A DNA stretch of 47,814 bases from Chloroflexota bacterium (GCA_018263575.1 JAANWX010000056.1:1-47814); one strand, 5' to 3'. Counted from the first letter of the stretch, positions 22 to 39,227 are shown. Program-made: numbers and translations. Notes: generated from the letters alone by a model not told the origin.

Positions 22-1470
22 CTAACCTCCAGCCTCCCGCTCCGCCAACACATCTTTAATAACGGCCTCCGCCTCATCTGATAGGGGAGTAACCTCATGC
101 TCGGCCAGGATTTGGCGGGCACGCTGGTTGGCGCGGGTGAACATATCCTTGCGGCCTTTTTCGTCCCAGGTGGTGTAGTCGTTGCGATCGATAATGTCGG
201 GCATCCATTGGGCAGTGCGGAAATTCTCGAACGTGTGCCGGTCAGCAATGTAGCCGCCGCCGGGGGTCACCCGCTTGGTGGCGTCCAGGGCCAGGGTGGC
301 CTTGTTGACGGGAAGTCCGCCGGCAAAGTAGCGTGTCATGCGGATGATCTCGTCGGCGATTACCAACATTTCCATGGATGAGGTGGAGCCATACTCAATA
401 TAGGCCACATCATGGGCCAGGGTGGTGCGGGAGAGGAAAGCGGTCATGATCGAGAAGGTGGCTTCTAGCCCGGCCTGAGCATCGACCACTTTGCTGTCGG
501 TTGCTCCGGCGTACCCCCACACGGGGAGGTTATAGTAATAGGCTAAGGCTGTCCAAGCCGCCATCCCCAGGCTCCATTCGGGCGCGCCATAGCTGACAAT
601 GGTGGTTTTCATGTCCAAGGCGGCGGTGTTCATTCCGTACAAGAAGGGCGCTCCAGGGTTCACCAGTTGAGAGATTATCAGACCCAGCAGGCATTCGGCA
701 TTGCCCAGGGCCACCGAACCGGCCACCGTGATCGGCCCTCCCCCGCCAGGGTTGGTGGAGGGGATATAGGCCACAGGGACGCCTTTTTCAGCACAAAAGA
801 TCACTTTTTGGAGGGATTCTTCGATGATGAAGAGCGGGGAGATGGGTTCAGCGTATTGCAGGAAGATGGGTTTCTCCCGTAGAATATCTTCTCCTCCCAC
901 GGCGGCCGCCGCAATGCGATAAATATCCCGCATGTCGTGGATGTCTTTGGCGGTGTAAACGTTGGGCTTAGTTGTGCCGCGCAGCATGCGGATAAAGGAA
1001 TGGATGTAGAGGTCATCGGGGGGGACGTCGGCGGAATTGCTCATGGACATGACGAAGTCAATGTTATCCAGGGCGTCGCTGAGGCGGGCGAAATCTTCCA
1101 CGTCTTGAGTCACGGCGCGGCGACGTTCTCCGCTTTCGATGTCGATGGTGAAGATGGTGTCGGAGCCAGTCCCGAAGAAAACTTTGCCTAATTCGAGAGG
1201 CATGACCAGGTTCCCCAACCGGTCGTACATGGGGATGCGGGAAGGCGCGCTGGCCAGGGCGTCATTGACGATGTGCTCGGGGATTTTTATGCGTCCGTCC
1301 GCTTCCCACGCGCCGGCCTCTAGGAGGAGTTCCCGGCCTTGGGGGTCTTCCATTTTGACACCGGTCTCGCGCAGAATCTCCAAGGTGGCGCTGTGGAGTT
1401 CTCGCACTTGCTCGTCGGAAAGCATGTTGATGGTGGGGTATGTGGTTGGGATAGGGACTTGCTGAGTCAT
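22..1470 (-). CDS. MttB-superfamily (trimethylamine methyltransferase family) corrinoid-dependent methyltransferase, non-pyrrolysine, copy 1
   Basis: 482 aa; family motifs FGTGSD, LDMKT..SYGAPE, GYAGATDSKVVDAQAG, HDVAYIE; AGGAGA RBS. Confidence 0.9.
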   Translation of the reverse strand: MTQQVPIPTTYPTINMLSDEQVRELHSATLEILRETGVKMEDPQGRELLLEAGAWEADGRIKIPEHIVNDALASAPSRIPMYDRLGNLVMPLELGKVFFGTGSDTIFTIDIESGERRRAVTQDVEDFARLSDALDNIDFVMSMSNSADVPPDDLYIHSFIRMLRGTTKPNVYTAKDIHDMRDIYRIAAAAVGGEDILREKPIFLQYAEPISPLFIIEESLQKVIFCAEKGVPVAYIPSTNPGGGGPITVAGSVALGNAECLLGLIISQLVNPGAPFLYGMNTAALDMKTTIVSYGAPEWSLGMAAWTALAYYYNLPVWGYAGATDSKVVDAQAGLEATFSIMTAFLSRTTLAHDVAYIEYGSTSSMEMLVIADEIIRMTRYFAGGLPVNKATLALDATKRVTPGGGYIADRHTFENFRTAQWMPDIIDRNDYTTWDEKGRKDMFTRANQRARQILAEHEVTPLSDEAEAVIKDVLAEREAGG

Positions 1471-1519
1471 ATATTTCTCCTAAAAAAGTGAAAGTTGGGT
1501 GCTGGCTATTGGGTATTTG

Positions 1520-1567
1520 AGGCTTGCCCTGAGCCTGGTCGAAAGGCTTGCCCTGAGCCTGGTCGAA
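1520..1567. repeat. Two tandem 24-bp copies of AGGCTTGCCCTGAGCCTGGTCGAA (REP-like), followed by a degenerate 7-mer TTACTCA-type tract to ~1617
   Basis: Read directly from the sequence. Confidence 0.85.
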
Positions 1568-1613
1568 GGGAAGGTCACTCATTACTCTTTACTCATCACT
1601 CTTCACTCCTCAC

Positions 1614-3746
1614 TCACTCTTCTCTGTGCCATATCCCCCTATTTTCTATCAGCCAAAGCTGGGAATTGATTTTAGGGTCGCCATCTTTGGGCTGGACGCG
1701 CTCGTACTTGCCATTGGGTAACATGCGGCGGGCTTTGACGTTGTCCTTAAGGTGAATGTTGAGAATCTCATCGCGCAGGGCAGTTTTTAAGCGTTCATCC
1801 TCAATGGGGACCAGGGTTTCGACGCGACGGTAAAGGTTGCGGGGCATGAGGTCCGCGCTGCCGATAATTATCTCTTCATCACCGCCGTTGCGGAAATAAT
1901 AGATACGGGTGTGCTCCAGGAAGCGTCCCACAATAGAGGTCACGGTGATATTCTCACTTACCCCTTCTACGCCGGGACGCAGGCAGCATATCCCCCGGGG
2001 CTGGAGGTCGATCTTTACGCCGGCCTGCGAGGCGCGGTAGAGGGCCCTGATGCAGTGTTTGTCTACCAGGGAATTCATTTTCAAGGCTATATAGCCCTTG
2101 CCGTTTTTTTTATGTTGTTCTATTTCCCGGTCAATGCGGGAGATAAATTGCTCTTGCATTTTCCCAGGTGCGACCAGGATTTTATTGTATTCTTCGTTGC
2201 GGGAGTAACCGGTCAGGGAGTTGAATAAATTAGAAAGATCAGCCCCTATTTCCGGATCACAGGTAAGATAACCTAAGTCGGCGTAAGTTCGGGCGGTCAC
2301 ATCGTTGTAGTTGCCCGTGCCCATGTGGACGTAGCGTTTAATTCCCTCTTGCTCGTTGCGGACAACCATACATATTTTGGCATGAGTCTTCAAACCCACC
2401 AGGCCATAAACCACATGTACCCCCGCTTCCTCCAGGGCGCGTGCCCAGACGATATTGTTCTCCTCGTCGAAGCGTGCTTTTAGCTCCACAAGCACGGCCA
2501 CTTGTTTCCCATTTTCGCGGGCTTCCATTAAGGCATCCACAATGGGAGAGTGAGGGCCGGTGCGGTAGAGGGCTTGTTTAATAGCCAAAACTTGAGGATC
2601 CCTGGCGGCTTGGCGGACGAATTTGACGATCGGGTCAAAACTGTCGTAGGGGTGATAAAAGAGGGTATTGTGACGGCGGATGACAGAGAAGATGTCCTCT
2701 CCTGTAGATAGCTGGGGAGGCATAGCGGGTTGGTAGGGTTTGTCTTTTAAATCGGGCCGGTTGACATCCATTAGCTCCATGACACTGGCCAGGCCAATAG
2801 GGCCATCTGATTGATAGACCTGATAAGGGGCTATACCAAGGTTATTGATCAATATCTCGCGTACCTGGTCAGACATGGTCTCGTCTATTTCTAGGCGCAC
2901 GGTGGAACCAAAGTGGCGTTTGCGAACGCTTTCCTCAATGGCTATCAAAAGGTCAGAGGCTTCATCTTCTTCTATCTCTGGGTCAGCGTCGCGGGTGATG
3001 CGGAAAGGGTAGGTAGCTACAACCTCTACACCGGGGAAGAGGATGTCTAAATTAGCGCCCACTACCTCTTCTAACCACACAAAGTTATTGGAAGATGCTT
3101 GGACGAGCCCCAGGCTTTGATAGTCTTCGGCCGTTTCTTCGCTGGGAATGCGCAGCAAGCGGGGGAAGGTATTGGGCACTTTGAGGCGGGCAAAGCGCTG
3201 GCCGTGCACGGGGTCGTTAACCACCACGGCCAGGTTAAGGCTGAGATTTGAGATATGTGGGAAGGGGTGGCCAGGGTCAAATGCCAAAGGGGTGAGCGCG
3301 GGAAAAATTTCTGCCTTGAAGTATTTTCGCATCAACTTGCATTGTTTGCGTTTGAGGTCATTGTAACGCAGTATTTTGATGCCTTCTTTTTTGAGCTTTG
3401 GGACCAGGTCGTTGTGCCAGCAGTCGTATTGCTTGTCCAGGACAGGAAGCAGGTTTTTGCGAATAGTGGCTAATTGTTCGGCTGGGGTCATCCCATCGGC
3501 GGGCGTTTTTAATACCCCAGCCGCCAACTGCCGTCGCAGTCCAGAAACACGTACCATGAAGAACTCATCCAGGAGGCTGCCAAAGATAGCAATGAACTTG
3601 ACCCTTTCCAGCAAAGGATGCGTTTCATCCAGTGCCTCTTCTAACACCCGGTTATTGTACTTGAGAAAACTCAACTCGCGGTTGATGTAGAGGCTGGGAT
3701 CCTTGAGAGAAGGTGGCTTTTTCTCTTTTTTCTTCTTCTTAGCCAT
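1614..3746 (-). CDS. ppk1: Polyphosphate kinase 1
   Basis: 710 aa; YINRELSFL, LDEFFMVRV, ELKARFDEENN, LKTHAK, GRFLEHTR, GSADLMPRNL. Confidence 0.97.
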   Translation of the reverse strand: MAKKKKKEKKPPSLKDPSLYINRELSFLKYNNRVLEEALDETHPLLERVKFIAIFGSLLDEFFMVRVSGLRRQLAAGVLKTPADGMTPAEQLATIRKNLLPVLDKQYDCWHNDLVPKLKKEGIKILRYNDLKRKQCKLMRKYFKAEIFPALTPLAFDPGHPFPHISNLSLNLAVVVNDPVHGQRFARLKVPNTFPRLLRIPSEETAEDYQSLGLVQASSNNFVWLEEVVGANLDILFPGVEVVATYPFRITRDADPEIEEDEASDLLIAIEESVRKRHFGSTVRLEIDETMSDQVREILINNLGIAPYQVYQSDGPIGLASVMELMDVNRPDLKDKPYQPAMPPQLSTGEDIFSVIRRHNTLFYHPYDSFDPIVKFVRQAARDPQVLAIKQALYRTGPHSPIVDALMEARENGKQVAVLVELKARFDEENNIVWARALEEAGVHVVYGLVGLKTHAKICMVVRNEQEGIKRYVHMGTGNYNDVTARTYADLGYLTCDPEIGADLSNLFNSLTGYSRNEEYNKILVAPGKMQEQFISRIDREIEQHKKNGKGYIALKMNSLVDKHCIRALYRASQAGVKIDLQPRGICCLRPGVEGVSENITVTSIVGRFLEHTRIYYFRNGGDEEIIIGSADLMPRNLYRRVETLVPIEDERLKTALRDEILNIHLKDNVKARRMLPNGKYERVQPKDGDPKINSQLWLIENRGIWHREE

Positions 3747-3907
3747 TGGTTGTTCCTTGTTAATCGTTCACTGGGAAGTGGCGGTCATCTCCGGGGTGGG
3801 GGAGGGGGAAAACTTCCCGATCCGGGATGCTCCCTAGCGGCGGACGGCGAACCCGGCGGGTACCGTTGACAAGGGCGGGACGGTCCCCCACGGGGAGACT
3901 CTCGCCA

Positions 3908-4747
3908 TTATCCATCCCCCACCTTTTTATCTTCCACCTGCCCATAGACCCGGGGTACAAAGTTTTGTTCGCTCATGGGGGGGCGCACGTAATTTGTGTC
4001 TTGTTCCTCACGTGGAGCGAGTTCTTCCAACTCTGGGGTCAGGTCTTTGTAGGTGATTAGGTTGAGCATGTGGGCCATGGTGTTTAAATGAGCGTGTTCG
4101 GGAACTTCGGCGTCCACCACGTACCAGGGCGCTTTGTCAATGTTTGTGTGGGCCATCATGGAGTCTTTGGCTTTGGAGTATTGCACCCATCGCTGGCGGG
4201 CTTCTCTATCAATGGGGGTGAGTCGCCAGCGTGTTCTGGGGTCTTTCATCCAGCTTTGGAAGCGGTGTTCTTGTTCTTCTGCGCTCACCGAAAGCCAATA
4301 TTTGATGAGGATGAATCCTTCGCGGACCAGCATGCGCTCAAATTGGGGGGTTTCGTTAAGGAAGAGGCGGTACTCATCTTCTGTGCAAAATTCCATCACC
4401 CACTCCACACCAGCGCGATTGTACCAACTTCGGTTGAAGAAGACGATTTCTCCTTTGGCGGGGAAATGTTTGGTATAGCGTTGGTAATACCATTGCCGTT
4501 TTTCACGGTCACTTGGTATGCCCAGGGCTACTGACCGCACAATGCGCGGGTTTAGTCGCTGTGTAATTTGCCTGATGGCCTCCGTTTTCCCGGCAGCGTC
4601 GCGCCCCTCGAAAATGACGATCACTTGCAAACCCTGGTCTCTGATCCAATATTGGAGTTTGACCATTTCGGTTTGGAGTTTGCGTAATTCTCGCTCGTAA
4701 TGTTCCGGGGTAATAACGCCATTTTTGTCGTATTCTATATTTGTCAT
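3908..4747 (-). CDS. ppk2: Polyphosphate kinase 2 paralog with altered Walker motifs
   Basis: 279 aa; EGRDAAGKTEAI and FNRSWYNRAGVE (canonical GKGG and FDRSWY). Confidence 0.85.
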   Translation of the reverse strand: MTNIEYDKNGVITPEHYERELRKLQTEMVKLQYWIRDQGLQVIVIFEGRDAAGKTEAIRQITQRLNPRIVRSVALGIPSDREKRQWYYQRYTKHFPAKGEIVFFNRSWYNRAGVEWVMEFCTEDEYRLFLNETPQFERMLVREGFILIKYWLSVSAEEQEHRFQSWMKDPRTRWRLTPIDREARQRWVQYSKAKDSMMAHTNIDKAPWYVVDAEVPEHAHLNTMAHMLNLITYKDLTPELEELAPREEQDTNYVRPPMSEQNFVPRVYGQVEDKKVGDG

Positions 4748-4883
4748 GGTAATCTGCTCCTTCGTTTAGAAGAGTAACAAGTAAAAAGTAATGAGAGATG
4801 CTTTTACACGGAGTTTCCCAGAGGAGACACAAACCTTAACGGAATTTTTTATTCTTTACGTTTTACTCATTACTCATTACGTT

Positions 4884-5702
4884 TCAATTATCATCAAATT
4901 CTGACCCGTAGATGAGAGGCACATAATTGTGTGCTTCGGTGGGGGGGCGTTGGTAATCCGTTTCTTCGCGCTCTTCGAACTCAACTGGATCGGGTGTTAA
5001 GTCTTGGTAAGGGATCATGGTTAAGAGATGGGAGATGCAGTTGAGACGGGCATGTTTTTTGACGTTGGCTTGCACTATGAACCAGGGGCTTTCGTTAGTG
5101 TCTGTGTATGCAAACATGGCGTCTTTGGCTTTGGAATATTCTCCCCAGCGGGCGCGGGATTCCATATCCATAGGGCTGAGTTTCCAAAGTTTACGGGGAT
5201 CTTGGTTACGGCTTCGGAAGCGTTCCTCTTGAATATCTTCGCTTATCTCGAACCAATATTTGATTAAGATAATGCCTTCCCGTACCAGCATGCGTTCGAA
5301 TGCGGGGCATTCGTTCAGGAAATGGCGGTATTCTTCTTCGGTGCAAAAGCCCATCACCCATTCCACACCAGCTCGGTTGTACCAACTGCGGTCAAATAGA
5401 ACCATTTCGCCTTTGGCTGGGAGATGTTCGATATAACGTTGAAAGTACCATTGACGATGCTCCCGGTCACTGGGTTTGGCTAGGGCTACTACCCGAACCA
5501 TACGGGGGTTCAGGCGGCGCATTATGCGGCGAATGGTTCCACCCTTTCCTGCGGCGTCGCGACCCTCGAAAATGACGATAACCCGCAGGCCCTGGTTTTT
5601 AATCCAATATTGAAGTTTGACCAGCTCGCCTTGGAGTTTTGCCAATTCTTTTTCATAATATTTATTTTTTATCTTCTTGTTTTTCTTATACTTTTTTGAC
5701 AT
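4884..5702 (-). CDS. ppk2: Polyphosphate kinase 2 (class I-like)
   Basis: 272 aa; EGRDAAGKGG, FDRSWYNRAGVE, WKLSPMD. Confidence 0.95.
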   Translation of the reverse strand: MSKKYKKNKKIKNKYYEKELAKLQGELVKLQYWIKNQGLRVIVIFEGRDAAGKGGTIRRIMRRLNPRMVRVVALAKPSDREHRQWYFQRYIEHLPAKGEMVLFDRSWYNRAGVEWVMGFCTEEEYRHFLNECPAFERMLVREGIILIKYWFEISEDIQEERFRSRNQDPRKLWKLSPMDMESRARWGEYSKAKDAMFAYTDTNESPWFIVQANVKKHARLNCISHLLTMIPYQDLTPDPVEFEEREETDYQRPPTEAHNYVPLIYGSEFDDN

Positions 5703-5719
5703 ACAACACTCCTTACCTC

Positions 5720-8290
5720 TTATAATGGTGTGATAATTTCAGCTATCATTTCTTTGAAACTATCACTCTGGAAATACACCCAGGTCTCCGGAAATGTACG
5801 TAGTTGTCTATAAAGCTCTCCTTGCCTATCGGCCAAGTAAGTTGCAACACCAGGGGCGAGGATAGGCTCTTTGGGCATATCCTGGTCTTTAGAACGCCCC
5901 CATGTTCCCCAGGTTAAAAAGTCGCGTAACAATTCGCTGGCTACCAGCGCGTCTTGCACATCTCCCAGGTGGTCTTGGAGTTTTTTCATGAGCTTGATAG
6001 CCTTCTCAGTTTGAGGTGAAAAGACTTCTTCGAAGAACTCCAATGTGTACCGCAGACGTTTGCCTGCGATTCGTAAACGGTGTAGTTGTTTTAAGGGTAC
6101 ATTGGGCGTGGTGACCCATTCCTCATAGGCCAAAACGTCTGCCATGCATTTGTATATGCTTATAGGTACCACATTGCTCACGCGATGAGGTTTTGCTCTA
6201 CCTTTCTTTGTCATTGTTTTTACTTTCCAGGCATCATCTCTTCTCAGTAGGATGGCAAAGCTCTCCTTGAATTCAGCGTATGTGTCCCCGTCCAGATAGG
6301 AGAGTAACTCTTCCCTGACCTTTTCTCGTTCTTCCTCCCACACTTCTCGGAGTGGGTCTAGCTCTTCTTGGCGTTCTGGGGGGAGTGTGTCCAGGTAGGC
6401 TTGGGTCTTATCCCAAAAGACATCCAAGTCACGCATGGAACCCAATTTGCGCCCCGTGCGTTTTAGGCCTTTGTGGATGGGCTTGAGGCGTTTCATATCC
6501 AGATAGTGTTTAAAAACGCGGAAGGCTGCCCGCATCCGGCGGGTAGCAACGCGCATTTTGTGTAATTTCTCAATGTCCTTGCTCTCCCGAGTGCCTTTTT
6601 CGTAGTATAACATTTCCTGGAAGTGGAATACGAAAGTTTTTCGAGCTGCTTCCCCCATTGAGTCATTTGCGTATAAGCCCGGATGGGTTGGCAGTTCTTG
6701 AGAACTGAAGTCAATCTCACTTTCATCCACCGGTTCTTCCTCTTCTAGGAAAGAAACGTAATCAGTTGCGGCCTGTTCAGGTTCGAAACGCAAATCTGTC
6801 TTGAATAACAAAGCCCATAAATCGCTTTTTTTCTGCGCACGGGCGGCGTCTGTAATGGCGTGGCGGCCCGTCACTTCAATTTCTACCAAGTCCTCCTTCT
6901 CGGTGACTTGGCCTATGGCACTATTCTGGCTGTGAGAATAATCCAGCCCGTCCCCTAAGCGGATCAAGGCGGCCAGGGCTAGGGCTTCATCGCGCGCTTT
7001 TTTCGACAAGCCAGCGAAAGCCTTTTTGGACGCTTTCTTGTCTACTTTTTTGTAGGTCATTTTTTTGCGGTGTAAGTAGGCGATAAGCGTCATCATCAGG
7101 CGTTCTTCTTCGTTGTACTCTTGCGGGGGATGGTCTAAGAGAATATCGCGCGCGGTCTTGTGATGGCCTTTAGGCCCAGAGACCAAGCCGATATCGTGGA
7201 GAAGGGCCGCTGTCTCTAAGAGCTGGCGATGTTCTGGGAGCAGGTTATGGAAGTCGTTGAGGTAGTCAAAGAGGGCCAGGGCGTTGTCTGCCACGGCGCG
7301 GGCGTGGTCCTGGTCTACGAGGTAGCGTTTGAGCAATTCTTGGAGTGGCCGTGGTTCGCTTTGTGGTTGGGGAGCTTCCTCTGGTTCTGAAGGCGGGGGC
7401 TGCTCGGTGGGTATTTCGGGGAGGATGGCTGCAGGAGACGGTAGTGTTTCATCTAAAATGCGTTTGGGGAAAGCCCCCAATCGTTTTTCTTGGAAAGTTG
7501 TCAGCCAGCGCCGGATTGTCCGCGTTGTCCTATCTGTGTCTTGGGCGACATGATCTTGGTCACTTCCCACATCAAGTTCCAGGAGGCCTTTCGCTCGCCG
7601 CCCATAGAGATCGTCTCGTTTGGTGATTAGCATGCAGATGGCATGTTCTTGGGGGGTTAGGATTCGTCCCCCTGGGGTGTCCTCGTTCATAAATGTCAGT
7701 GAGCGCTCGAACTTCGAACGCGGTTCAGGTTCTAATTCCCATTCGTCTTGCATGTGCCGCACAATGGAACTAATATCATCCTGCGTTCCCTTGGGACCTA
7801 GCTCAATCTCTAGTTCAAAATACCTTTGCTTTCTATCACCAGAGACAATATGGACATTGTCAAGACTTAATAGCGCAATCTCTCGTCCATCTTGAGACAT
7901 GCGGCGGTAAACGCGAGTTTGTTGGAGGTCAAAGAGGGGGAGTAGTGGAGCGTCAGCGATAAATTGTAGTATGAGATTGCGAACGGGACTCTTAGGCCAT
8001 TCCTGGGGAGGCTTGTAAGCGGGTAGGGAAATCTCTAATTCTTTCCGACGGTGGATGGCGCCACTTGCCCTTCCCGGCCCTTTGACTGTGATCAGCACTT
8101 CCGCTTCGGCCTCTCTTAAGCGGCAACTGTAACCGTTTGCCAGAATCATACGATCTTCTGTATCCAAGTAGGTATCGTGCACCTGTTGGATTTGATGCGC
8201 TGAAAGCGTAAAATTATTGACCTGATTGGCAGCTTGCAAACGTTGGAATGTTAGTACGTCAGGTAAGATGAACTTGGCTTCAATTTCCAT
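5720..8290 (-). CDS. CYTH + HTH-like + HD (Ppx C-terminal type) + CHAD multidomain polyphosphate-associated protein
   Basis: 856 aa; N-terminal MEIEAKF (ExExK) and ELEIE; HA..VA..AL.LF...LLHDIG; CHAD repeats LHKMRVATRRMR and LHRLRIAGKRLRY.LE. Confidence 0.85.
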   Translation of the reverse strand: MEIEAKFILPDVLTFQRLQAANQVNNFTLSAHQIQQVHDTYLDTEDRMILANGYSCRLREAEAEVLITVKGPGRASGAIHRRKELEISLPAYKPPQEWPKSPVRNLILQFIADAPLLPLFDLQQTRVYRRMSQDGREIALLSLDNVHIVSGDRKQRYFELEIELGPKGTQDDISSIVRHMQDEWELEPEPRSKFERSLTFMNEDTPGGRILTPQEHAICMLITKRDDLYGRRAKGLLELDVGSDQDHVAQDTDRTTRTIRRWLTTFQEKRLGAFPKRILDETLPSPAAILPEIPTEQPPPSEPEEAPQPQSEPRPLQELLKRYLVDQDHARAVADNALALFDYLNDFHNLLPEHRQLLETAALLHDIGLVSGPKGHHKTARDILLDHPPQEYNEEERLMMTLIAYLHRKKMTYKKVDKKASKKAFAGLSKKARDEALALAALIRLGDGLDYSHSQNSAIGQVTEKEDLVEIEVTGRHAITDAARAQKKSDLWALLFKTDLRFEPEQAATDYVSFLEEEEPVDESEIDFSSQELPTHPGLYANDSMGEAARKTFVFHFQEMLYYEKGTRESKDIEKLHKMRVATRRMRAAFRVFKHYLDMKRLKPIHKGLKRTGRKLGSMRDLDVFWDKTQAYLDTLPPERQEELDPLREVWEEEREKVREELLSYLDGDTYAEFKESFAILLRRDDAWKVKTMTKKGRAKPHRVSNVVPISIYKCMADVLAYEEWVTTPNVPLKQLHRLRIAGKRLRYTLEFFEEVFSPQTEKAIKLMKKLQDHLGDVQDALVASELLRDFLTWGTWGRSKDQDMPKEPILAPGVATYLADRQGELYRQLRTFPETWVYFQSDSFKEMIAEIITPL

Positions 8291-8363
8291 CGTTAACTCC
8301 TGTTAACTACCGTCAACCGTTAACTCATACTCTGTCATAGGTCCGTTTCCCCCTTTGTACATT

Positions 8364-8372
8364 ATTATAGCA
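8364..8372 (-). promoter_or_regulatory. Putative extended -10 promoter (TGCTATAAT) of the polyP operon
   Basis: TGnTATAAT on the minus strand ~75 nt upstream of the 8290 start. Confidence 0.5.
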
Positions 8373-8438
8373 TAATTAGGGATGGCTCAGAAACGTGTAT
8401 ACACTTTGGGTAGCGCGTTGGCAGTATTGGGTAAACCT

Positions 8439-29761: not shown

Positions 29762-29765
29762 GTAA

Positions 29766-29801
29766 GAAAGAGACCCAACTAAGGAAGCTTGGGTCTCTTT
29801 C
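29766..29801 (-). terminator. Hairpin after the substrate-binding protein gene
   Basis: GAAAGAGACCCAA...TTGGGTCTCTTTC inverted repeat. Confidence 0.6.
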
Positions 29802-29818
29802 ATAAGGTAAAAGAGAGT

Positions 29819-31543
29819 TTACTCGTCGATCCAGACTTCGTAGAGCAGGTCGTAGGCTGTGGGGTGGGCTTCGACGTTCTGGAATTTGGAAGCGGTGACA
29901 TTCCAGACGCTCTTCCAGAAGCTGTTGAAGACGGGTCCGCGTTCTTGCATGATGTCTTCGATCTTGCACATCAGGCTGCGGCGGGCTTCAACGTCCAACG
30001 TGCCCTGAGCCTCGCGGAGGATTCCTTCGAACTCTTCATCAAACCAACGAGTCTCATTCCAGGCTCCGATGCTCTCTTCGGTGTAAGCCAACGGCAGGAC
30101 CATAGTGGCCAGCGGTCGGTGTGTCCAGGATGTGATTCCTAGGTCAACCTCAGTCCAGCGATCCCAGTAGCCAGACGGTTCAGTGATGTCCAATTCAATC
30201 TCGAAGCCGGCCGGTTCGGCCAGTTCTTTCAAAGTCTGGGCAATCGCTGGTTCGGCTTGGTCATTCTTGGTGGCCAGGGATACCTTGAGGGGCAGTTCAA
30301 GGCCCTTCTCGGCGGCATATTCTTCGAGTAATGCCTTGGCACCTTCGGGATCGTATTCTGGGATGTCCTTCTCGCAGTAAGCGGGGTGGACAGGGGCCAC
30401 ATGGGCATCTAGGGAGAGGTCACCCTCACCGAAGTAGGCTAGTTGCAAAATCTTGGCCCGATCCTGGCACTTCTTGAGCGCGTTGCGCACGCGTACGTCA
30501 TCCCACGGTTCGAGGTCTACGCGCATGCGGCCAAGTAGACACTGCGCCGTGCTGGCGGGGCGGATGGTCAGGCCATCAACACCCTGGAGGGCTTGGAAGT
30601 CAGTGGGGCGCGGATCGTAGAGCGCGTCCACCTGACCAGATTGTAGTGCGGCTAAACCAGCGTCCTTGTCCGTGGAAACGTAAACTAGTTTATCCAGGTA
30701 AGGGAGTGGTTCCCCGTCACAACCCATCTGCCAATAATCCTCGCGGCGTTGGAAGACAGCTCGCTCGCCCTCAGCATATTCTTCTAAGGTGAAAGCACCT
30801 GTGCCAATGGGCTGTTTGATGATGTCGCCATCGAAGTCGCGATGTAAGATCACGGCTGGATAGTGGAAGAGGTGCTCGGGCACGGCGATATCGCCAAATT
30901 GCAGGTGGAGTTTGATGTGGTAATCATCAACTTTTTCCACGTCTTGCATGCCGCTTAGGTAAGACATCAACCCCAGCATTGAAGAGCCAACATCCGGATT
31001 TAGCCACTCACCAATGGTGAACATGACGTCATCGGCGGTCAGTTCATCGCCATTGTTGAATAAAACGCCTTTCCGCAAGTAAAGGTCCCAGGTCTTGACA
31101 TCCTCACTCGCTTCCCATTTTTCGAGCAAATAGGGGTGGGTGATATTGTCAGAGCCTGTCAGGGTCAGGTATTCATTCGTTTGGCGAACAATGTTGGCGC
31201 CTTCCACCCACGAGAGGCGGGCCGGGTGATCGAGAAGCTGAAGCTGCATGGAAGCTGTCCAAGTGCCACCGCGCTTTACACAAGGAGCGGCCTCTTCTTC
31301 TACAACTTCTTCTTCCTCGGCAGGGGCTTCTTCTACAACTTCTTCCTCGGCAGGGGCTTCTTCCACGGGTTCTTCTGTTTTACATCCGGCTAAGAACGTG
31401 GTAGCGGCAGCGGCCGACATCCCTAATAACGTCGCGTTGCGTAAAAACTCGCGGCGAGTGATTTTCCCTTTTTGGAAAAGGTTTTGTAGTTCAGGGATAT
31501 ACGGATGTGCTACATCTCTGTCTTTCTTCTTGATAATTTCCAT
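29819..31543 (-). CDS. ABC transporter family-5 substrate-binding lipoprotein with Tat signal
   Basis: ITRREFLR, FLAGC lipobox, acidic EEAPAEEEVV repeat linker, PIGTGAF, DVRVRNAL; GAGGAGG RBS before ATG 31543. Confidence 0.92.
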   Translation of the reverse strand: MEIIKKKDRDVAHPYIPELQNLFQKGKITRREFLRNATLLGMSAAAATTFLAGCKTEEPVEEAPAEEEVVEEAPAEEEEVVEEEAAPCVKRGGTWTASMQLQLLDHPARLSWVEGANIVRQTNEYLTLTGSDNITHPYLLEKWEASEDVKTWDLYLRKGVLFNNGDELTADDVMFTIGEWLNPDVGSSMLGLMSYLSGMQDVEKVDDYHIKLHLQFGDIAVPEHLFHYPAVILHRDFDGDIIKQPIGTGAFTLEEYAEGERAVFQRREDYWQMGCDGEPLPYLDKLVYVSTDKDAGLAALQSGQVDALYDPRPTDFQALQGVDGLTIRPASTAQCLLGRMRVDLEPWDDVRVRNALKKCQDRAKILQLAYFGEGDLSLDAHVAPVHPAYCEKDIPEYDPEGAKALLEEYAAEKGLELPLKVSLATKNDQAEPAIAQTLKELAEPAGFEIELDITEPSGYWDRWTEVDLGITSWTHRPLATMVLPLAYTEESIGAWNETRWFDEEFEGILREAQGTLDVEARRSLMCKIEDIMQERGPVFNSFWKSVWNVTASKFQNVEAHPTAYDLLYEVWIDE

Positions 31544-31832
31544 CTGTTTATTCCTCCTCATAGGTAATTTTGTTCTCTTTAGACAATATATGAGCGCCAG
31601 TGTTAAAAGGATTAGCCCAGACAGGCACTAACCAATTACTCTGGCAGCAATACGCGGGAATGTTTTTTCGGTACACCTCCTTTTTTTATTGAATTATGTT
31701 TTTGGGTGATAGTTTAATCTCTGCGGGACAAAGACTTTGGTGGATTAACCTATTATAACATAGTATATCATAAATATATCAAGTGACACAAGTAATATTT
31801 GTGCCTGGCATTTCCATATAGTTGATTAGGTG

Positions 31833-32891
<1,059 letters not shown>

Positions 32892-32910
32892 AAGGGAACA
32901 TTATTGTCTT

Positions 32911-33603
32911 TTACTCGGGCCGGGTGCCAACATACCAGGCATCGCTGTCTTCTCGAATAATGTGCTCGAGGGTAATTTGGCGGGTCTCGTTTACTTCATC
33001 AAGGATGGCTTGTTTAGCGCTTTCTATATCTCCCGCGCGCAAAGCCTCAACCAAACGATGGTGTCTGTTTTCAATTTCATCTCCTGTTTGGATGAAGATC
33101 AAAAAACGGGCCAAGCGTTCATGGAGGCGTTTCAATGTTTCAGCAAGTTCTTGATTTCCGGAGGCTTGGGCAATTAGGTAGTGGAAACGTAGGTTTTCAT
33201 CGAGGTAACGTTCTTGGGATGAGTTCTCGTCTCCAGTATAACCAGCATGCACATTCTCTAATATGGAGAGCTGTTCCTCAGTGATGCGTTGGGCCGCTTG
33301 CTCTACGGAGGCAAGCTCGAGAATCTTCCGCAACTCGAGCATGTCACGTAATTTTTTGAGCGAGACCTTAGCCACGTAGAAACCAGCATGAGGCCGGTTG
33401 ACGACCAGGTTTTCTTGGGTGAGCATTTGCAAAGCTTCTCGCACTGGTGTCACGCTGGTATTGTATTGGGCTGCTAACTCATCCAAGTGAAGTCGCTCTC
33501 CTGGTTTAAGATCATTTGAAATGATAGAACGACGAACATTCCGATAGATTTTATTCTTGGATGTATCGCTGGGGGATGTATCCCCGAGAGGAGAAGTCAT
33601 CAA
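32911..33603 (-). CDS. GntR-family regulator (FCD domain)
   Basis: LKPGERL....LA...TSVTPVREAL; FH..IA.ASGN. Confidence 0.92.
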   Translation of the reverse strand: MMTSPLGDTSPSDTSKNKIYRNVRRSIISNDLKPGERLHLDELAAQYNTSVTPVREALQMLTQENLVVNRPHAGFYVAKVSLKKLRDMLELRKILELASVEQAAQRITEEQLSILENVHAGYTGDENSSQERYLDENLRFHYLIAQASGNQELAETLKRLHERLARFLIFIQTGDEIENRHHRLVEALRAGDIESAKQAILDEVNETRQITLEHIIREDSDAWYVGTRPE

Positions 33604-33803: not shown

Positions 33804-35246
33804 ATGCCCAAAACACATCAGAAGCGTCAAACCGATGCCCCTTATGCCCGTATGGGCGGGAAAACTAGTGAACAAATTCATTTAGCAAGTTTAGAAATTT
33901 TAGAGCGCGTGGGCATCGAAGTCCACGATGACAAAGCCAGAGAAATACTTGTGGAGGCGGGCGCCACGACCGAAGGTCAGCGTGTTCTTATTCCTGAACA
34001 CCTGGTCAGCTGGGCCTTGGCGGCGACTCCTGGGCGGATTACCCTGTGTGACCGGCACGGTGATGTTGCTATGCGCGCCTGGGGCTACAACACGTATTTT
34101 GGGGGCGGCTCCGATTGTCTCTATGTCCTCGACCACCGCACTGGCGAGCGGCGCAGGGCGGTGATGGAAGATCTTCGGGAAGCAGTGACCCTCATGGACG
34201 CCCTGCCCAACATCGACTTTGTCATGTCCGCCTTTCTGCCCTCCGACGTGGAGCAGCAGGTTTATGACCTTTACCAAATGGAGGCCATTCTCAACCTGAC
34301 CACTAAACCGCTCGTTTTCGTCACTCCCGATTTCGAGGGCTGCGTGACCGCGGTGGAGATGTGTGAGGCCGTGGCCGGCGGGGAGGAGGCCTTTCGCCAG
34401 CGTCCCTTCGCCACCTGTTATATCAACGTCACCTCTGGCCTGGTCGCCAACGAGGAGGCTCTTCAAAAATGTATCTACCTGGCCGAAAAAGGGCTGCCCT
34501 TGCTTTATATCCCCATCAACGCGGCCGGTGTCAACTCCCCCTCCACCCCGGCGGGATGTATGGCCACTTTGAACGCCGGGACCTTGTTGGGCATTGTCTT
34601 GGCACAGCTCGTGCGGGAAGGAACACCTGTGGGCGTGGTGGGCTGGAATGGCGGGACGTATAACCTGAAGACCATGGTCGCAAACTACGTCCTGGCCGAT
34701 GGACTTGGCATGGCAGCCTCGATGGGCAAGTTTTACGACCTCCCCGTTTTTGGGCTGGGCGGCGCGACCGACTCGAAAGTTTTGGACCAACAATGCGCGG
34801 CCGAAACGACCATCAGCCTCTACACCGCCCACCTCAACGGAGCCAACATCATTCACGATTGCGGCTTCATGGACGCTGGCCTTCAAGGTTCGCTGCAACT
34901 CATCACCATCACCAATGACCTGATCGGCTTCATCCGCGCCGCCACGGCCCCGGTGGAGATCAACGCGGAGACCCTGGCCCTGGACGTGGTGGAAGAGCTC
35001 GGACCGGAGGGGAATTATCTGGCCCATGACCATACCTTCGAGCATTTCCGCGACCCCTATTATTCTGAGCTGGCCGATAAACGCCAATATGATTCGTGGG
35101 TCGAGCAAGGAGCCACCACCATGGAAGAACGCGCCGCCGAGCAGGTGGAGAAAATCCTCGCCGAACACGAGCCAGAACCCCTCCCGGACGATGTGCAAAA
35201 AGCGTTGCGTGCGATCGTTGTGCGAGAGGAGGAGGCGGTTGGGTGA
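33804..35246 (+). CDS. MttB-superfamily methyltransferase, non-pyrrolysine, copy 5
   Basis: 480 aa; FGGGSD, GLGGATDSKVLD, HDCGFMD; AGGAG RBS. Confidence 0.9.
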   Translation: MPKTHQKRQTDAPYARMGGKTSEQIHLASLEILERVGIEVHDDKAREILVEAGATTEGQRVLIPEHLVSWALAATPGRITLCDRHGDVAMRAWGYNTYFGGGSDCLYVLDHRTGERRRAVMEDLREAVTLMDALPNIDFVMSAFLPSDVEQQVYDLYQMEAILNLTTKPLVFVTPDFEGCVTAVEMCEAVAGGEEAFRQRPFATCYINVTSGLVANEEALQKCIYLAEKGLPLLYIPINAAGVNSPSTPAGCMATLNAGTLLGIVLAQLVREGTPVGVVGWNGGTYNLKTMVANYVLADGLGMAASMGKFYDLPVFGLGGATDSKVLDQQCAAETTISLYTAHLNGANIIHDCGFMDAGLQGSLQLITITNDLIGFIRAATAPVEINAETLALDVVEELGPEGNYLAHDHTFEHFRDPYYSELADKRQYDSWVEQGATTMEERAAEQVEKILAEHEPEPLPDDVQKALRAIVVREEEAVG

Positions 35247-35689: not shown

Positions 35690-36931
35690 ATGACCGACAA
35701 AGACCAATTTTTTATGCGCGAAGCCTGGGAATACGATCCCGGCGCCAAGCCAAAACCGGCCCCTGACGCTCACCTGGGCTTCAACACCCGCGCCCTGCAC
35801 ACTGGGTTTGACCCTTTGAAGAGCGTGAAGGATTTTCGTTCCTTTGTGCCGCCCATCACCCAATCCATGACCTATCCCTATGAACGCTTCGAGGAGATTC
35901 CCTATCCGGTTTATGGGCGCACCCAGACTCCCACCACGGCGGTTTTGGAGGAGCGTTTGGCCGCCTTGGAGGGGGGAGAGGCCTGCGTGACGGCTGGTTC
36001 CGGTTCCCAGGCCCTGTTCGACCTCATCTTCACCCTGACCCGGCCCGGCGACAACGTGGTCACCAGCCTCAACATCTATGGGGAGGGATACAAACAAGCC
36101 ACGGCCATTTTCCCGGAGCGCTGCGGAGTGGATTTTCACTTCGTGGACGACCCCGCCGACCCCGCTTCGTGGGATGCCGCCATTGACGACAAAACCAAGC
36201 TGGTGTGGGTGGAGACGCCCAGCAACCCCTGCCTCTTCGTCACCGACATCGCCGCTGTGGCCGATGTAGCCCACGCCAAGGGCGTTCCCCTGCTGGTGGA
36301 TAACACCACCGCCACGGCCGCCCTCCAAAAACCGATCGCCTTGGGCGCGGATATGGTGCTCCTCTCCATCACCAAATTCCTGTGCGGGAACGCCAGCGTG
36401 CTGGGTGGGGCAGTGGTTGGCCCCGAAGCCCTGGTGGAGGATGTGCGCTGGAACACGACCGAGTTCGTCGGCGCGGTCTTGCAACCTTTCGAGGCCTGGT
36501 TGACGCTCCAATTCTTAGAGACTCTCTCCCTGCGCATGGAGCGGCACAGCGCCAACGCCCAACGGGTGGCCGAGTTCCTGGCCGGGCACCCCCGGGTGGA
36601 GCACGTCAACTACCCCGGGCTGGTCGGCCATCCCCAACATGAACTGGCCCAACGCCAAATGCGGGCTGGCGGGGGGATGTTATCCTTCGTCGCCCCGGGC
36701 GGGATGGCGGGGGCCGGGGCCGTGATCGACCGTTTCCAACTCATCACCCACGCCGTCACCTTCGGGACCAGCCGGACGATCTGCATGCATCCCCCCACCA
36801 TCACCCACGAGCACATGACCCCCGAGGAACGCGCCAAGGCCGGTATCGATGACGGCCTGATCCGCCTCTCCGTTGGCCTGGAAGACCCGGACGACCTGAT
36901 CACCGATTTGGATCAAGCCCTGTCTGGCTAA
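35690..36931 (+). CDS. Cys/Met metabolism PLP-dependent lyase (methionine gamma-lyase / cystathionine lyase family), divergent
   Basis: LAALEGGE, WVETPSNP, VDNT, SITK (PLP Lys), YPGL, IRLSVGLED. Confidence 0.88.
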   Translation: MTDKDQFFMREAWEYDPGAKPKPAPDAHLGFNTRALHTGFDPLKSVKDFRSFVPPITQSMTYPYERFEEIPYPVYGRTQTPTTAVLEERLAALEGGEACVTAGSGSQALFDLIFTLTRPGDNVVTSLNIYGEGYKQATAIFPERCGVDFHFVDDPADPASWDAAIDDKTKLVWVETPSNPCLFVTDIAAVADVAHAKGVPLLVDNTTATAALQKPIALGADMVLLSITKFLCGNASVLGGAVVGPEALVEDVRWNTTEFVGAVLQPFEAWLTLQFLETLSLRMERHSANAQRVAEFLAGHPRVEHVNYPGLVGHPQHELAQRQMRAGGGMLSFVAPGGMAGAGAVIDRFQLITHAVTFGTSRTICMHPPTITHEHMTPEERAKAGIDDGLIRLSVGLEDPDDLITDLDQALSG

Positions 36932-36998: not shown

Positions 36999-37057
36999 TT
37001 GACAAAAAGTCCTGATTCCTTGATAATTTCCTAAAGAACATAATATCAGATAATATG
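36999..37057 (+). promoter_or_regulatory. Sigma70-type promoter plus inverted repeat overlapping the FadR start
   Basis: TTGACA-17-GATAAT; CATAATATC-A-GATAATATG at 37039-37057. Confidence 0.6.
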
Positions 37058-37753
37058 ATAAATAAAACCTCTCCCCCTTTCCAAAGAAATACCCTTGTCG
37101 ACAATGTCACCGCTGAACTGCGGCGCATGATCCTGGAGCAAGAGATCATGCCGGGAGAATTTTTGCCAGCCCGCAAGGATTTGGCTGCCCGGTTTGGTGT
37201 CGGGCTTTCCACTATTCAAGAAGGCATACAGGCCCTGGCCGCGGTCGGGATGCTCGAGTCACGCCCCGGAAAAGGGACTTGGGTGCGTGAGGACACCCTG
37301 GATATGCTCATTCATCCCACCACGGTGGAAACTCGTTTGGGTGAGTTGGATATCCAGCAACTCTACGACGCCCGTCTGGTGGTTGAGGTTGGCCTAGCGG
37401 AACTCGCTGCCCAAAACGCCAAACCAGAAGACATCCAAAAAATCCAGGATGCCTTAACGGCCTTGGAAGATTCTCAAGGGGATGATGAGGCCTTCATTGC
37501 CGCCGATCTGGCTTTTCACATCGCGGTAGCCCAGGCCGGGCATAACAAATTATTGGAGCAGTTTTATCACCTTTCCCGCAAACTATTGGAAGAGGTGATC
37601 GCTGAGTTAATCAAACTGCCCTCTGTGAAAGAAAATGGTATACGCATTCAGGGTGAAATTGCCCGGGCTATTCAAGACGCGGATGTTGAGCAAGCACGTC
37701 GAGCCACCCTTGACCACATGGAGATTATTAAAGATCTTATTAAGAAACTATAG
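37055..37753 (+). CDS. FadR/GntR-family regulator
   Basis: PGEFLP...LA.RFGV...IQEG...L...G.LESRPGKGTWV; AD..FH..VA.A.HN. Confidence 0.92.
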   Translation: MINKTSPPFQRNTLVDNVTAELRRMILEQEIMPGEFLPARKDLAARFGVGLSTIQEGIQALAAVGMLESRPGKGTWVREDTLDMLIHPTTVETRLGELDIQQLYDARLVVEVGLAELAAQNAKPEDIQKIQDALTALEDSQGDDEAFIAADLAFHIAVAQAGHNKLLEQFYHLSRKLLEEVIAELIKLPSVKENGIRIQGEIARAIQDADVEQARRATLDHMEIIKDLIKKL

Positions 37754-37787
37754 TGGACGAGTCTTATTCCTAAGGAGAGATGAGAGT

Positions 37788-39227
37788 ATGAAAACTTCCA
37801 ACACAATTGCCTTCCAATCCCCACAATTTGCCGTCCTTTCCGAGAGCCAATTGCGCGACCTGCACCTCGGCGCGTTGGAATTATTGCGGCGGACGGGGAT
37901 CCGCTTCTATCACGACCAGGCCCTAAAGATGCTCGGAGAGGCCGGGGCTTTCGTCTCGGACGGCAACCTGGTCAAATTTCCGGCCCGCATGGTCGAGGAT
38001 GCCCTCGCCACTGTGCCTGAACGGGTCATCATGTGTGACCGGGATGGGGAGCCAGCCGTCTTTTTGGAGGATCATAAAGTCAATTTTGGGACCGGCTCGG
38101 ATTGTATCAATTTCCTTGATCCTGAGACGGGAGAGCATCGCAAGTTCACCCAGGCTGACATTATCAAAGGGTATCACTTATGCGACGCGCTGCCCAATAT
38201 CGATTTTGTGATGTCGATAGGCATCCCCGCCGACGTGGACCCCGGTATCACTTACGATGCGCAAATGGCCCTGATGCTGGAACATACCACCAAGCCCCTC
38301 GTTTTCGTCACTGATGACAAAGCCAGTTGCCAGCGGGCCATCGACATGGCCGCGGCGGTGGCGGGCGGGCACGAGGCTTTGCGAGAGCAGCAGCATATCC
38401 TGCTCTACTCGGAACCCAGTTCCCCCCTCCAACAATCGGAAACAGCCGTGGATAAGCTGCTCTTAATGGCCGAACACGAGCTTCCGGTTGTGCACTCTCC
38501 CGGCCTGTTGATGGGCGGAACGGCCCCGATCACAATGGCCAGCGGGTTGGTGATGTCCATGGCCGAGATTCTCAGTGGGCTGGTCGTCCACCAGATGACC
38601 AACCCCGGCGCGCCCTTCATCTTTGGGGCCGGTCTCCATCACATGGACATGAAGGCCACCCAGATTTGCTATGGCGGCCCCGAATTCCAACTCACCAAGG
38701 CGGCCGTGGCCGAACTGGGACGCTGGTATGGGATGCCCACCTGGGGCTATGCGGGCTGCTCGGACGCCAAGGTCATGGACGAACAAGCGGCGGCGGAAGC
38801 CATGCTCTCGGTGACAATGGCCAAGCTGACGGGCGCCAACCTCATCCACGATGTCGGGTACATGGAAAGCGGCCTGACCACCTCCTTCGAAATGATTGCC
38901 TTGAGCGATGAATTGATAGGCCTGACGGGGAGTTTGATGAAGGGCATTGAGGTCAACGAAGAGACCATGATGCTGGACGAACTGCATGAGATTGGGCCGG
39001 GCGGGCACTTCCTCTCCACCGACGCCACCATGAACCGCTTCCGGGATTTTTGGTACCCGGATATGATCAGCCGCGAGATTCGTGATACCTGGCTAGAGCG
39101 GGACGCAAAACCGCTGGGCCAGCGCCTGAACGAAAAGGTCAAGACCATCATCGCCGAACACCGCCCCCAGCCGTTGGAGAAAGGGAAAAAGGAGAAAGTG
39201 CAGGCCATTCTCGCCCAAGCCGCTTAA
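37788..39227 (+). CDS. MttB-superfamily methyltransferase, non-pyrrolysine, copy 6
   Basis: FGTGSD, YSEPSSPL, HHMDMK, GYAGCSDAK, HDVGYME; closest to copy 3; AAGGAG upstream of ATG 37788. Confidence 0.9.
   Translation: MKTSNTIAFQSPQFAVLSESQLRDLHLGALELLRRTGIRFYHDQALKMLGEAGAFVSDGNLVKFPARMVEDALATVPERVIMCDRDGEPAVFLEDHKVNFGTGSDCINFLDPETGEHRKFTQADIIKGYHLCDALPNIDFVMSIGIPADVDPGITYDAQMALMLEHTTKPLVFVTDDKASCQRAIDMAAAVAGGHEALREQQHILLYSEPSSPLQQSETAVDKLLLMAEHELPVVHSPGLLMGGTAPITMASGLVMSMAEILSGLVVHQMTNPGAPFIFGAGLHHMDMKATQICYGGPEFQLTKAAVAELGRWYGMPTWGYAGCSDAKVMDEQAAAEAMLSVTMAKLTGANLIHDVGYMESGLTTSFEMIALSDELIGLTGSLMKGIEVNEETMMLDELHEIGPGGHFLSTDATMNRFRDFWYPDMISREIRDTWLERDAKPLGQRLNEKVKTIIAEHRPQPLEKGKKEKVQAILAQAA

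Follow-up and report, generated by a model that had tools for sequence, protein, structure and literature searches.

Six pyrrolysine-free MttB-family paralogues in an Anaerolineales gene island and their probable dependence on a remote corrinoid partner

The substrates assigned so far to the MttB superfamily of methyltransferases, six in all, are either trimethylamine (TMA) or acidic quaternary amines, and metagenome studies label every homologue that lacks pyrrolysine (Pyl) as 'mttB' or 'mtgB', from which methylamine or glycine-betaine cycling is inferred. A 47 814-nucleotide stretch of DNA from a Chloroflexota bacterium (GCA_018263575.1 JAANWX010000056.1:1-47814), the whole of which is referred to here as the window, raises the question of what such genes do when several of them occur together and none of the proteins with which they would be expected to work is encoded nearby. 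Six intact MttB-family genes (c1-c6) lie within 39 kb of the window (bases 22-39227) and are part of a putatively catabolic gene island typical of Anaerolineales (Chloroflexota). They quite probably encode six substrate-specific methyltransferases of the MT1 type, ordinary in their dependence on a corrinoid protein, with the corrinoid partner encoded elsewhere.

Six divergent paralogues and their active sites

A Pfam scan of the 38 open reading frames (ORFs) of at least 100 amino acids in the window identified six matches to PF06253 (MTTB), with scores of 259-408 bits against a gathering cut-off of 25 and E-values ranging from 8.7e-77 (weakest) to 4.5e-122 (strongest). Most of the 500 positions of the profile are covered in each case, and six full-length matches in 39 kb are far beyond chance. 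The genes are the following.

22-1470, minus strand: c1, MttB-family paralogue, 482 amino acids, PF06253 E-value 1.9e-91
8439-9932, minus strand: c2, MttB-family paralogue, 497 amino acids, PF06253 E-value 4.5e-122
13672-15105, minus strand: c3, MttB-family paralogue, 477 amino acids, PF06253 E-value 3.1e-83
22874-24289, minus strand: c4, MttB-family paralogue, 471 amino acids, PF06253 E-value 8.7e-77
33804-35246, plus strand: c5, MttB-family paralogue, 480 amino acids, PF06253 E-value 6.4e-91
37635-39227 (ORF), plus strand: c6, MttB-family paralogue, 530 amino acids, PF06253 E-value 8.4e-91

The length of c2 is counted from a TTG start, with an ATG eight codons in. The PF06253 match in c6 begins at residue 51 of the 530-residue ORF, and the true start is likely to be Met52 at position 37788, which would give a protein of 479 residues and a gene spanning 37788-39227. 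All six copies are open under translation table 11 and therefore contain no in-frame TAG codon, so that the original prediction, made from the sequence alone, of six pyrrolysine-free paralogues in 39 kb is borne out. When the six copies were used as tblastn queries exactly six regions were returned, leaving no seventh copy or fragment in the window. The other copies are 35-41% identical to c1, and from their sequences the six appear to be old paralogues that diverged long ago.

The pyrrolysine of the TMA methyltransferase MttB from Methanosarcina barkeri (PDB entry 7xcl), Pyl334, is the X of 'AGSXSDAK' and falls in the HMMER alignment on the residue preceding the (S/T)D(S/A)K motif, which was the position given in the original prediction. 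This residue is Ala, Met, His, Cys, Ala and Cys in c1-c6, respectively (AG-A-TDSK, AG-M-TDSK, AG-H-SDSC, AG-C-SDSK, GG-A-TDSK and AG-C-SDAK), and Leu in MtgB, the glycine betaine enzyme from Desulfitobacterium hafniense; none of the copies thus has the pyrrolysine of Pyl-containing MttB (Pyl-MttB). A second motif reads HDVAY in c1, HHAAGMLE in c2, HDVGY in c3, c4 and c6, and HDCGF in c5. These readings, including the SDSC of c3 and the division into five copies of an HD(V/C)(G/A)(Y/F) subtype and one of an HAAGMLE subtype, are exactly those given in the original prediction. A database search with c3 yielded 4210 relatives among 8000 scored candidates. The best 120 of the 4210 are 75-99% identical to c3 and, where named, are annotated as 'trimethylamine methyltransferase family protein' and come from Anaerolineae or Chloroflexi metagenome-assembled genomes (MAGs); 116 of these 120 share the combination of His with SDSC (two have Met with SDSC and two fall outside the pattern); it is therefore a selected character of the clade and not an error.

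Scores against TIGR02369, the model for Pyl-MttB, are 414, 477, 376, 334, 358 and 406 bits for c1-c6, respectively, all under the equivalog cut-off of 525. Sequence comparison with characterized enzymes was confined to MtgB, MttB and the solved structure 4YYC (PDB searches), for which the respective scores are 232, 224 and 136 bits for c1, 283, 258 and 204 bits for c2, 161, 173 and 115 bits for c3, 177, 145 and 130 bits for c4, 165, 170 and 129 bits for c5, and 207, 190 and 136 bits for c6. On these scores no copy groups specifically with the glycine betaine enzyme. The fold was modelled for c3 alone using AlphaFold2, with a predicted local distance difference test (pLDDT) score of 92.2 and a predicted template-modelling (pTM) score of 0.90. 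The model superposes on MttB (7xcl) with a TM-score of 0.93 and on MtgB (9yce/2qne) with TM-scores of 0.89-0.90, over ~480 columns, and c3 is thus predicted to keep the whole MttB fold, consisting of a TIM barrel with N- and C-terminal extensions.

The active site was compared with those of the two structurally characterized enzymes. In the glycine betaine site of MtgB, Tyr97 and Phe356 establish cation-pi contacts, while Arg312 and His348 hold the carboxylate; Arg312 is described as conserved in all MttB superfamily members of known function, the substrates of which are all acidic quaternary amines, and the R312L variant of MtgB has no detectable activity (PMC13080624). In c1-c6 the equivalents of Tyr97 are Ser, Gly, Ser, Ser, Ser and Ser, those of Arg312 are Trp, Tyr, Trp, Phe, Phe and Trp (M. 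barkeri MttB has Tyr), and those of Phe356 are Gly, Met, Gly, Ala, Gly and Gly, so that His348 is the only member of the tetrad to be retained, which it is in all six, and none of the copies is MtgB-like. The alignment is gap-free across the stretch around Arg312 and the Pyl position. Arg is found at the Arg312 position in none of the 175 scorable Anaerolineales homologues, which have Trp (97), Tyr (48), Phe (24), Met (4) or His (2) instead. Since this Arg is absent from both the six copies and the 175 homologues, substrate binding differs from every case studied.

In Pyl-MttB, Tyr364 activates pyrrolysine, is fully conserved and is needed for activity (PMC9842639). It occupies the same alignment column as His348 of MtgB and is replaced by His in all six copies. 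The absence of Pyl334, the replacement of Tyr364 and the TIGR02369 scores below the cut-off together mean that the copies cannot activate TMA in the manner of MttB. In the complex of MttB with its corrinoid protein MttC, a Gly-Thr peptide contacts the corrin ring (PMC9842639); the corresponding peptide is GTG in c1, c2, c3 and c6, GPG in c4 (resembling the 'PG' of MtgB) and GGG in c5.

These comparisons bear directly on the possibility that the six are isozymes of known betaine demethylases, namely MtgB or its relatives acting on proline betaine, carnitine, butyrobetaine or phosphocholine, and that the island is an osmolyte pathway. Such a view could draw on the slightly higher score of c2 to MtgB than to MttB, on the presence of a gene for an OpuAC-type betaine-binding protein upstream of a c2/c1 pair in seven of the related loci described below, and on the routine naming of such Chloroflexi genes as mtgB in metagenome papers (PMC6081815). 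The loss from every copy of all of the MtgB tetrad except His348, together with the inactivity of the R312L variant, argues strongly in the other direction; in addition, there is little difference between the MtgB and MttB scores of any copy, c3 and c5 scoring higher to MttB, and the copies differ among themselves as much as they do from MtgB. From these comparisons, which covered MtgB, MttB and 4YYC, a set of betaine isozymes is considered to be very unlikely.

Orthologue clades and corrinoid partners in related loci

The window was compared with 80 related loci, the best 80 of 411 relatives of c1, with one genome per species and at most ~21 kb per locus (designated by L numbers where they are named individually). 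All are from Chloroflexota, mostly Anaerolineales or Anaerolineae, and their identity to c1 ranges from 60 to 95%. They contain 198 MttB-family gene regions, with two or more in 59 of the 80 loci and six in one of them; clustering of MttB paralogues is normal in Anaerolineales, and the rarity implied by the original prediction is not supported, the more so as multi-copy, pyrrolysine-free MttB genes with a remote partner have been published (PMC12155760, PMC12478193).

A FastTree phylogeny of the six window copies and the 177 regions in which 400 or more residues aligned was cut at a fixed depth. Every window copy falls into a separate clade with a support of 97-100, and each clade has its own conserved active-site signature. 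The c1 clade has 43 members (support 97) and a sister clade, x1, of 36; the c2 clade has 31 members (support 99), the c3 clade five including the window copy, all with His and SDSC, the c4 clade three (support 100), the c5 clade 12 (support 100) and the c6 clade 18 (support 100), while the further clades x4 and x6 have 16 and seven members, respectively. The c4 and c6 clades both conserve a Cys at the Pyl position. Orthologues of each copy in other genomes reach 70-95% identity, and the closest relative of c1, in L001, is 95% identical and lies on a 6.3-kb contig with the same gene order, PPK2-PPK2-PPK1-c1. The window and its 80 relatives thus reveal at least nine distinct conserved MttB clades in Anaerolineales, without the substrate-binding Arg of the enzymes studied. 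As the loci were picked by similarity to c1, the c3, c4 and c5 clades are poorly sampled.

A crowd of copies in a small region, with fragments of mobile elements nearby (an HNH endonuclease gene, an ORF resembling a REP-associated transposase and an IS4 fragment), might also be read as redundant or decaying duplicates without distinct functions. The six copies are, however, intact and long diverged, and the existence of orthologue clades with conserved signatures and neighbours contradicts that interpretation, which is regarded as extremely improbable.

No B12-binding, Pterin_bind or RamA-type Pfam domain was found in the 38 window ORFs, and 47 corrinoid, pterin-methyltransferase and activase-candidate proteins of the relatives gave no significant match in the window by tblastn (best E-value 0.038). 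The window therefore contains no corrinoid protein, methyltetrahydrofolate (methyl-THF) methyltransferase or activase, nor any remnant of these, and the statement in the original prediction that no MttC-like corrinoid protein, RamA-type activator or methyl-THF transferase is visible in it proves correct. In L001, there is likewise no partner within the ~960 bp downstream of c1, which comprise a spacer of ~500 bp followed, up to the end of the contig, by a MazF-like ORF.

Partners are nonetheless encoded in the lineage. A corrinoid-protein homologue is present in 35 of the 80 related loci (tblastn), and all five of the corrinoid candidates scanned contain the Pfam domains B12-binding and B12-binding_2. 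Two of these proteins were compared with NCBIfam and match MtgC_2 best (NF047996, glycine betaine-specific corrinoid protein MtgC; 245 and 218 bits, cut-off 370), with scores just below the cut-off of 215 on TIGR02370 (methyltransferase cognate corrinoid protein; 206 and 208 bits). Eleven of the 80 related loci encode a homologue of the methyl-THF:corrinoid methyltransferase, the second methyltransferase (MT2), and both of those compared with PRK07535 exceed its cut-off of 259 (284 and 319 bits). Adjacency was counted for genes on the same strand with a gap of less than 300 bp, and the corrinoid counts are lower bounds, since they rest on a set defined by regular expression (28-29 loci, versus 35 by tblastn) in which corrinoid genes were undercounted because antisense ORFs displaced some of them. 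A corrinoid gene immediately precedes nine of 30 c2-type and 11 of 36 x1-type genes and immediately follows three of 42 c1-type genes. The full set is found in L009, in the order GntR regulator, OpuA-type betaine ATP-binding cassette (ABC) transporter, c2-type gene, c1-type gene (72% identical to c1), corrinoid protein, type I glutamine synthetase (GlnA) and pterin methyltransferase. The MttB paralogues of this lineage are thus linked to corrinoid proteins although all of them lack Arg312. Among the 34 loci in which the c1 orthologue is at least 70% identical, five have a corrinoid gene within 10 kb, compared with 30 of the 46 more distant loci, and a remote partner is accordingly usual among the closest relatives.

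An ASKHA protein of 560-810 residues (Hydantoinase_A / Hydant_A_N / MutL-like), homologues of which occur in 13 of the 80 loci, is encoded directly upstream of the corrinoid gene in eight of them (L050, L059, L060, L065, L067, L068, L070 and L071; for example, in L070 at 6960-9035, followed by the corrinoid gene at 9284-9922). It falls under all NCBIfam cut-offs, the top match being caprolactamase alpha with 127 bits, and is a candidate for a reductive activase or a chaperone of the corrinoid protein, different in type from RamA. Two further candidates for corrinoid proteins were discarded: an apparent fusion of a corrinoid protein and MttB in L080 is an artefact of a masked run of N, and a regular-expression match for a B12-binding protein at 3651-4628 in L055 contains no Pfam domain.

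Because corrinoid and MT2 genes stand beside the orthologues in related genomes, ordinary corrinoid-dependent methyl transfer is the most likely function of the six copies. The original prediction had offered two alternatives, of which a battery for unstudied substrates with a remote corrinoid partner remains the best explanation, while a non-canonical reaction is disfavoured by these same neighbours. Each enzyme would bind a methylated onium compound, most likely a quaternary amine, in the pocket of its TIM barrel and would offer one of the methyl groups of this compound to Co(I) in a small corrinoid protein, from which a Pterin_bind MT2 would then move the methyl group to tetrahydrofolate. 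The corrinoid protein, MT2 and any activase would be encoded outside the 47.8-kb window and would probably be common to all six paralogues.

Four observations weigh against this explanation. The window itself contains no partner gene, and it is only by inference that one is placed in the organism's own genome; a corrinoid gene directly adjoins none of the four c3-type, two c4-type and 11 c5-type orthologues in the loci, which were chosen via c1; c3 lacks the Lys of the SDSK motif; and the acid-binding Arg of the characterized pyrrolysine-free members is replaced by an aromatic residue in all six copies.

Conserved gene pairings and candidate substrates

Each Anaerolineales MttB clade is wired to a different downstream enzyme, and the neighbours of the six window copies are the following, from left to right.

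1614-8290, minus strand: polyphosphate block of 6.7 kb, comprising a CYTH-HD-CHAD fusion, two PPK2 and PPK1 (Pfam)
15376-16242, minus strand: FAD subunit (Pfam)
16407-19247, minus strand: fused 2Fe-2S and Mo subunit of the xanthine dehydrogenase (XDH) family (Pfam; under every NCBIfam cut-off)
19165-20688, minus strand: methylaspartate ammonia-lyase (TIGR01502, 465 bits, cut-off 286)
20696-21724, minus strand: Zn alcohol dehydrogenase (Pfam)
21810-22595, minus strand: Asp/Glu-racemase-like PRK07475-family protein (PRK07475, 273 bits, cut-off 231)
24603-25289, minus strand: CBS-domain protein (Pfam)
25240-27357, minus strand: fused double ABC ATPase (Pfam)
27368-28276 and 28289-29587, minus strand: two permeases (Pfam)
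29819-31561, minus strand: family-5 solute-binding protein (Pfam)
31833-32891, minus strand: L-threonine 3-dehydrogenase (Tdh, NF003808, 571 bits, cut-off 380)
32911-33603, minus strand: GntR regulator (Pfam)
35690-36931, plus strand: Cys/Met-metabolism pyridoxal phosphate (PLP) enzyme, downstream of c5 (PF01053, E-value 7.5e-117)
37055-37753, plus strand: GntR regulator with GntR and FCD domains, upstream of c6

The block at 15376-22595 lies between c4 and c3, on the same strand as both. The order methylaspartate ammonia-lyase, XDH-family enzyme, FAD subunit and c3-type MttB is shared with L007, L008 and L012, and its last two genes with L016. A c3-type gene directly follows the gene for the XDH FAD subunit in all four orthologues, as it does in the window, and in L007 the stop and start codons overlap. 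Of 17 c6-type genes, seven have a GntR regulator upstream and ten an XDH-family Mo subunit downstream, the stop and start codons often overlapping in the latter pairing; c6 of the window is followed by an aminotransferase gene in place of the Mo subunit. The XDH-family proteins fall under every NCBIfam cut-off. The ORF of the lyase has a GTG start and a Pro/His-rich extension of 47 residues that overlaps the ORF of the next gene; translation probably begins at Met48, and that of the XDH-family ORF (16407-19247) probably at its second Met. The presence of this lyase in one operon with an XDH-family enzyme and two MttB paralogues is a puzzling combination.

The same block lends some weight to a further alternative, in which corrinoid-dependent methyl transfer has been abandoned by at least one copy, with c3 as the chief candidate, for another TIM-barrel chemistry, for example one assisted by a metal or a thiol; putative metal ligands in c3 would be the His at the Pyl position, the Cys at the position of the motif Lys and a His-Asp pair. 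The His at the Pyl position of c3 and the Cys in place of the motif Lys are under selection, as noted above, the c3-type gene is co-operonic with an XDH-family molybdoenzyme, no corrinoid gene is present in any of the c3-type loci sampled and the Cys at the Pyl position of the c4 and c6 clades is likewise conserved. The sample of c3-type loci is, however, limited to four, and no superfamily member is known to work without a corrinoid. The model of c3 predicts the retention of the complete fold, including the C-terminal region, and c3 also keeps the GTG corrin-contact motif and, in the alignment, the invariant residues of the family. A departure of this kind is therefore judged to be unlikely.

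The genes at 24603-33603, all on the minus strand and upstream of c4, form a putative uptake and regulation module, and the same transporter families are found in 32-33 of the 80 related loci. A block of CBS and ABC-transporter genes followed by an MttB gene is seen for c4 in the window and for six of the seven x6-type genes, a clade that has the F/C signature of c4. The family-5 solute-binding protein has a long, acidic and repetitive linker rich in Glu, Ala, Pro and Val after its signal or anchor region, with the binding domain starting from approximately residue 140.

In nine of 11 orthologues, and also in the window, the gene directly after the c5-type gene encodes a Cys/Met-family PLP enzyme. 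The best NCBIfam match of the window enzyme is methionine gamma-lyase, with 376 bits, under the cut-off of 666.

The c2-type genes precede a c1- or x1-type gene head-to-tail in 27 of 30 cases (for example, L007:8486-11449, L009:8505-11443 and L012:8464-11455), and 17 of 42 c1 orthologues have a c2-type gene directly before them. In the window this c2-c1 tandem is split by the polyphosphate block, which lies outside the methyltransferase system; its G+C fraction is 0.48-0.52, compared with 0.56 over c1, and its fusion protein has 856 residues with CYTH, HD/Ppx-GppA_III and CHAD domains. In their solved structures MttB and MtgB are dimeric, the active site of each subunit being edged by the C-terminal loop of the other, and by analogy a c2/c1 heterodimer is conceivable. 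GlnA is encoded directly downstream of the c1-type gene in eight of 42 cases (loci with GlnA: L002, L007-L010, L012, L016, L029, L034, L035, L040 and L061; the L009 copy scores 515 bits on TIGR00653, cut-off 429), which suggests that nitrogen released from the substrate is assimilated on the spot. The GlnA neighbour of the window c1 has either been lost or lies beyond the left edge.

The paired genes would provide the substrate or act on the product of demethylation, and candidates for these roles are the Dpp/Opp-type ABC importer, the GntR regulators, the Cys/Met-family PLP enzyme, the XDH-family molybdoenzyme with its FAD subunit, methylaspartate ammonia-lyase and the aminotransferase. From these pairings it may tentatively be suggested that one or more of the six clades use substrates of a class new to the MttB superfamily, a possibility that remains on the doubtful side. 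The c5 type could demethylate a sulfonium amino acid, for example S-methylmethionine to methionine, an idea prompted by the methionine gamma-lyase-like enzyme downstream of most of its orthologues. The c3 and c6 types share operons with XDH-family molybdenum hydroxylases and could remove the methyl group from N-methylpyridinium or purinium osmolytes of the trigonelline/homarine type before hydroxylation of the ring. The lineage-wide loss of Arg, the His or Cys at the Pyl position and the Lys-to-Cys replacement in c3 fit a different binding mode.

The remaining genes of the window were also inspected. Three small ORFs on the minus strand, at 12569-13462 and 10367-10822, interrupt a stretch for which L007 and L008 have a compact arrangement (MttB-TatA-TatC); the G+C fraction falls to 0.45 there. 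They are an HNH endonuclease gene (149 residues), an adjoining ORF of 146 residues without a family match and an ORF of 151 residues that weakly resembles a REP-associated tyrosine transposase (50 bits, cut-off 80). The right end (41079-47714) is unrelated to the MttB genes and encodes a DUF3800 protein, NifS-like and NifU-like Fe-S assembly proteins, a DsrE2-family protein, an OGG-like protein, a Cthe_2314-type HEPN protein, the C-terminal part of a MoaA-like protein and a fragment of an IS4 transposase (197 residues, 63 bits, cut-off 152).

According to the records of the related loci, Anaerolineales are common in sediment, soil, saline and water-column metagenomes, and their MttB-family genes should not be read as markers for glycine betaine or TMA. 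The outcome of the analysis is a concrete, ranked series of orthologue groups for expression and substrate screens.

Comparison with known systems

MtgB from D. hafniense (PDB entries 2QNE and 9YCE) resembles the six copies in its Pfam family, its fold and its lack of pyrrolysine, with scores of 161-283 bits and with His348 present in all six. It differs in its Tyr97, Arg312 and Phe356, which are lost in the copies, and in the Leu at its Pyl position, and the window lacks an adjoining corrinoid gene. MttB from M. barkeri (PDB entries 7XCL and 7XCN) scores 145-258 bits and shares the aromatic residue at the Arg312 position with all of the copies and the GTG peptide with four of them. The copies differ from it in having neither Pyl334 nor an in-frame TAG, in the replacement of Tyr364 by His and in their TIGR02369 scores of 334-477 bits, under 525. 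The solved alphaproteobacterial relative from Sinorhizobium meliloti (4YYC), to which the six copies score 115-204 bits, has Arg at the Arg312 position. The best NCBIfam matches of the Anaerolineales corrinoid proteins are the MtgC_2 and pyl_corrinoid models.

In the literature, pyrrolysine-free mttB homologues in Chloroflexi and Anaerolineae MAGs are mentioned in passing, usually labelled mtgB (PMC6081815, PMC11264602). A literature search, the coverage of which excluded most subscription journals, returned no study of the present clades or of their pairing with XDH-type and PLP enzymes, and no report in which the family acts on S-methylmethionine or trigonelline.

The organization as a whole has close counterparts. 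Eubacterium limosum has 42 MttB-family members, of which MtpB, MtcB and MtyB all use the corrinoid protein MtqC and the MT2 MtqA (PMC12155760). MthB from the same organism works with MthC/MthA. The same logic, with many pyrrolysine-free paralogues of which several are served by a single corrinoid protein and a single MT2, is proposed for the window; the E. limosum enzymes, on the other hand, act on acidic quaternary amines and, by the published description, keep the equivalent of Arg312, which the window copies lack. In Ruegeria pomeroyi, the MtgB genes are remote from mtgC (cobalamin-binding) and mtgD (pterin-binding), and as many as seven pfam06253 ORFs are found in a single genome of this and other marine bacteria, for which diverse methylated substrates have been suggested (PMC12478193). 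In this aerobic system MtgC and MtgD are shared with a split methionine synthase, and the MtgC of roseobacters is CmuA-like. The MtgBCD(E) system of R. pomeroyi is thus similar in having several paralogues per genome, remote from their partners, and differs in belonging to another phylum. An arrangement of multiple paralogues with a remote, shared partner is therefore already known, and the Anaerolineales genes do not represent a new kind of system; they are of value because the acid-binding Arg has been lost throughout the lineage and the gene pairings are conserved, which together provide testable substrate hypotheses.

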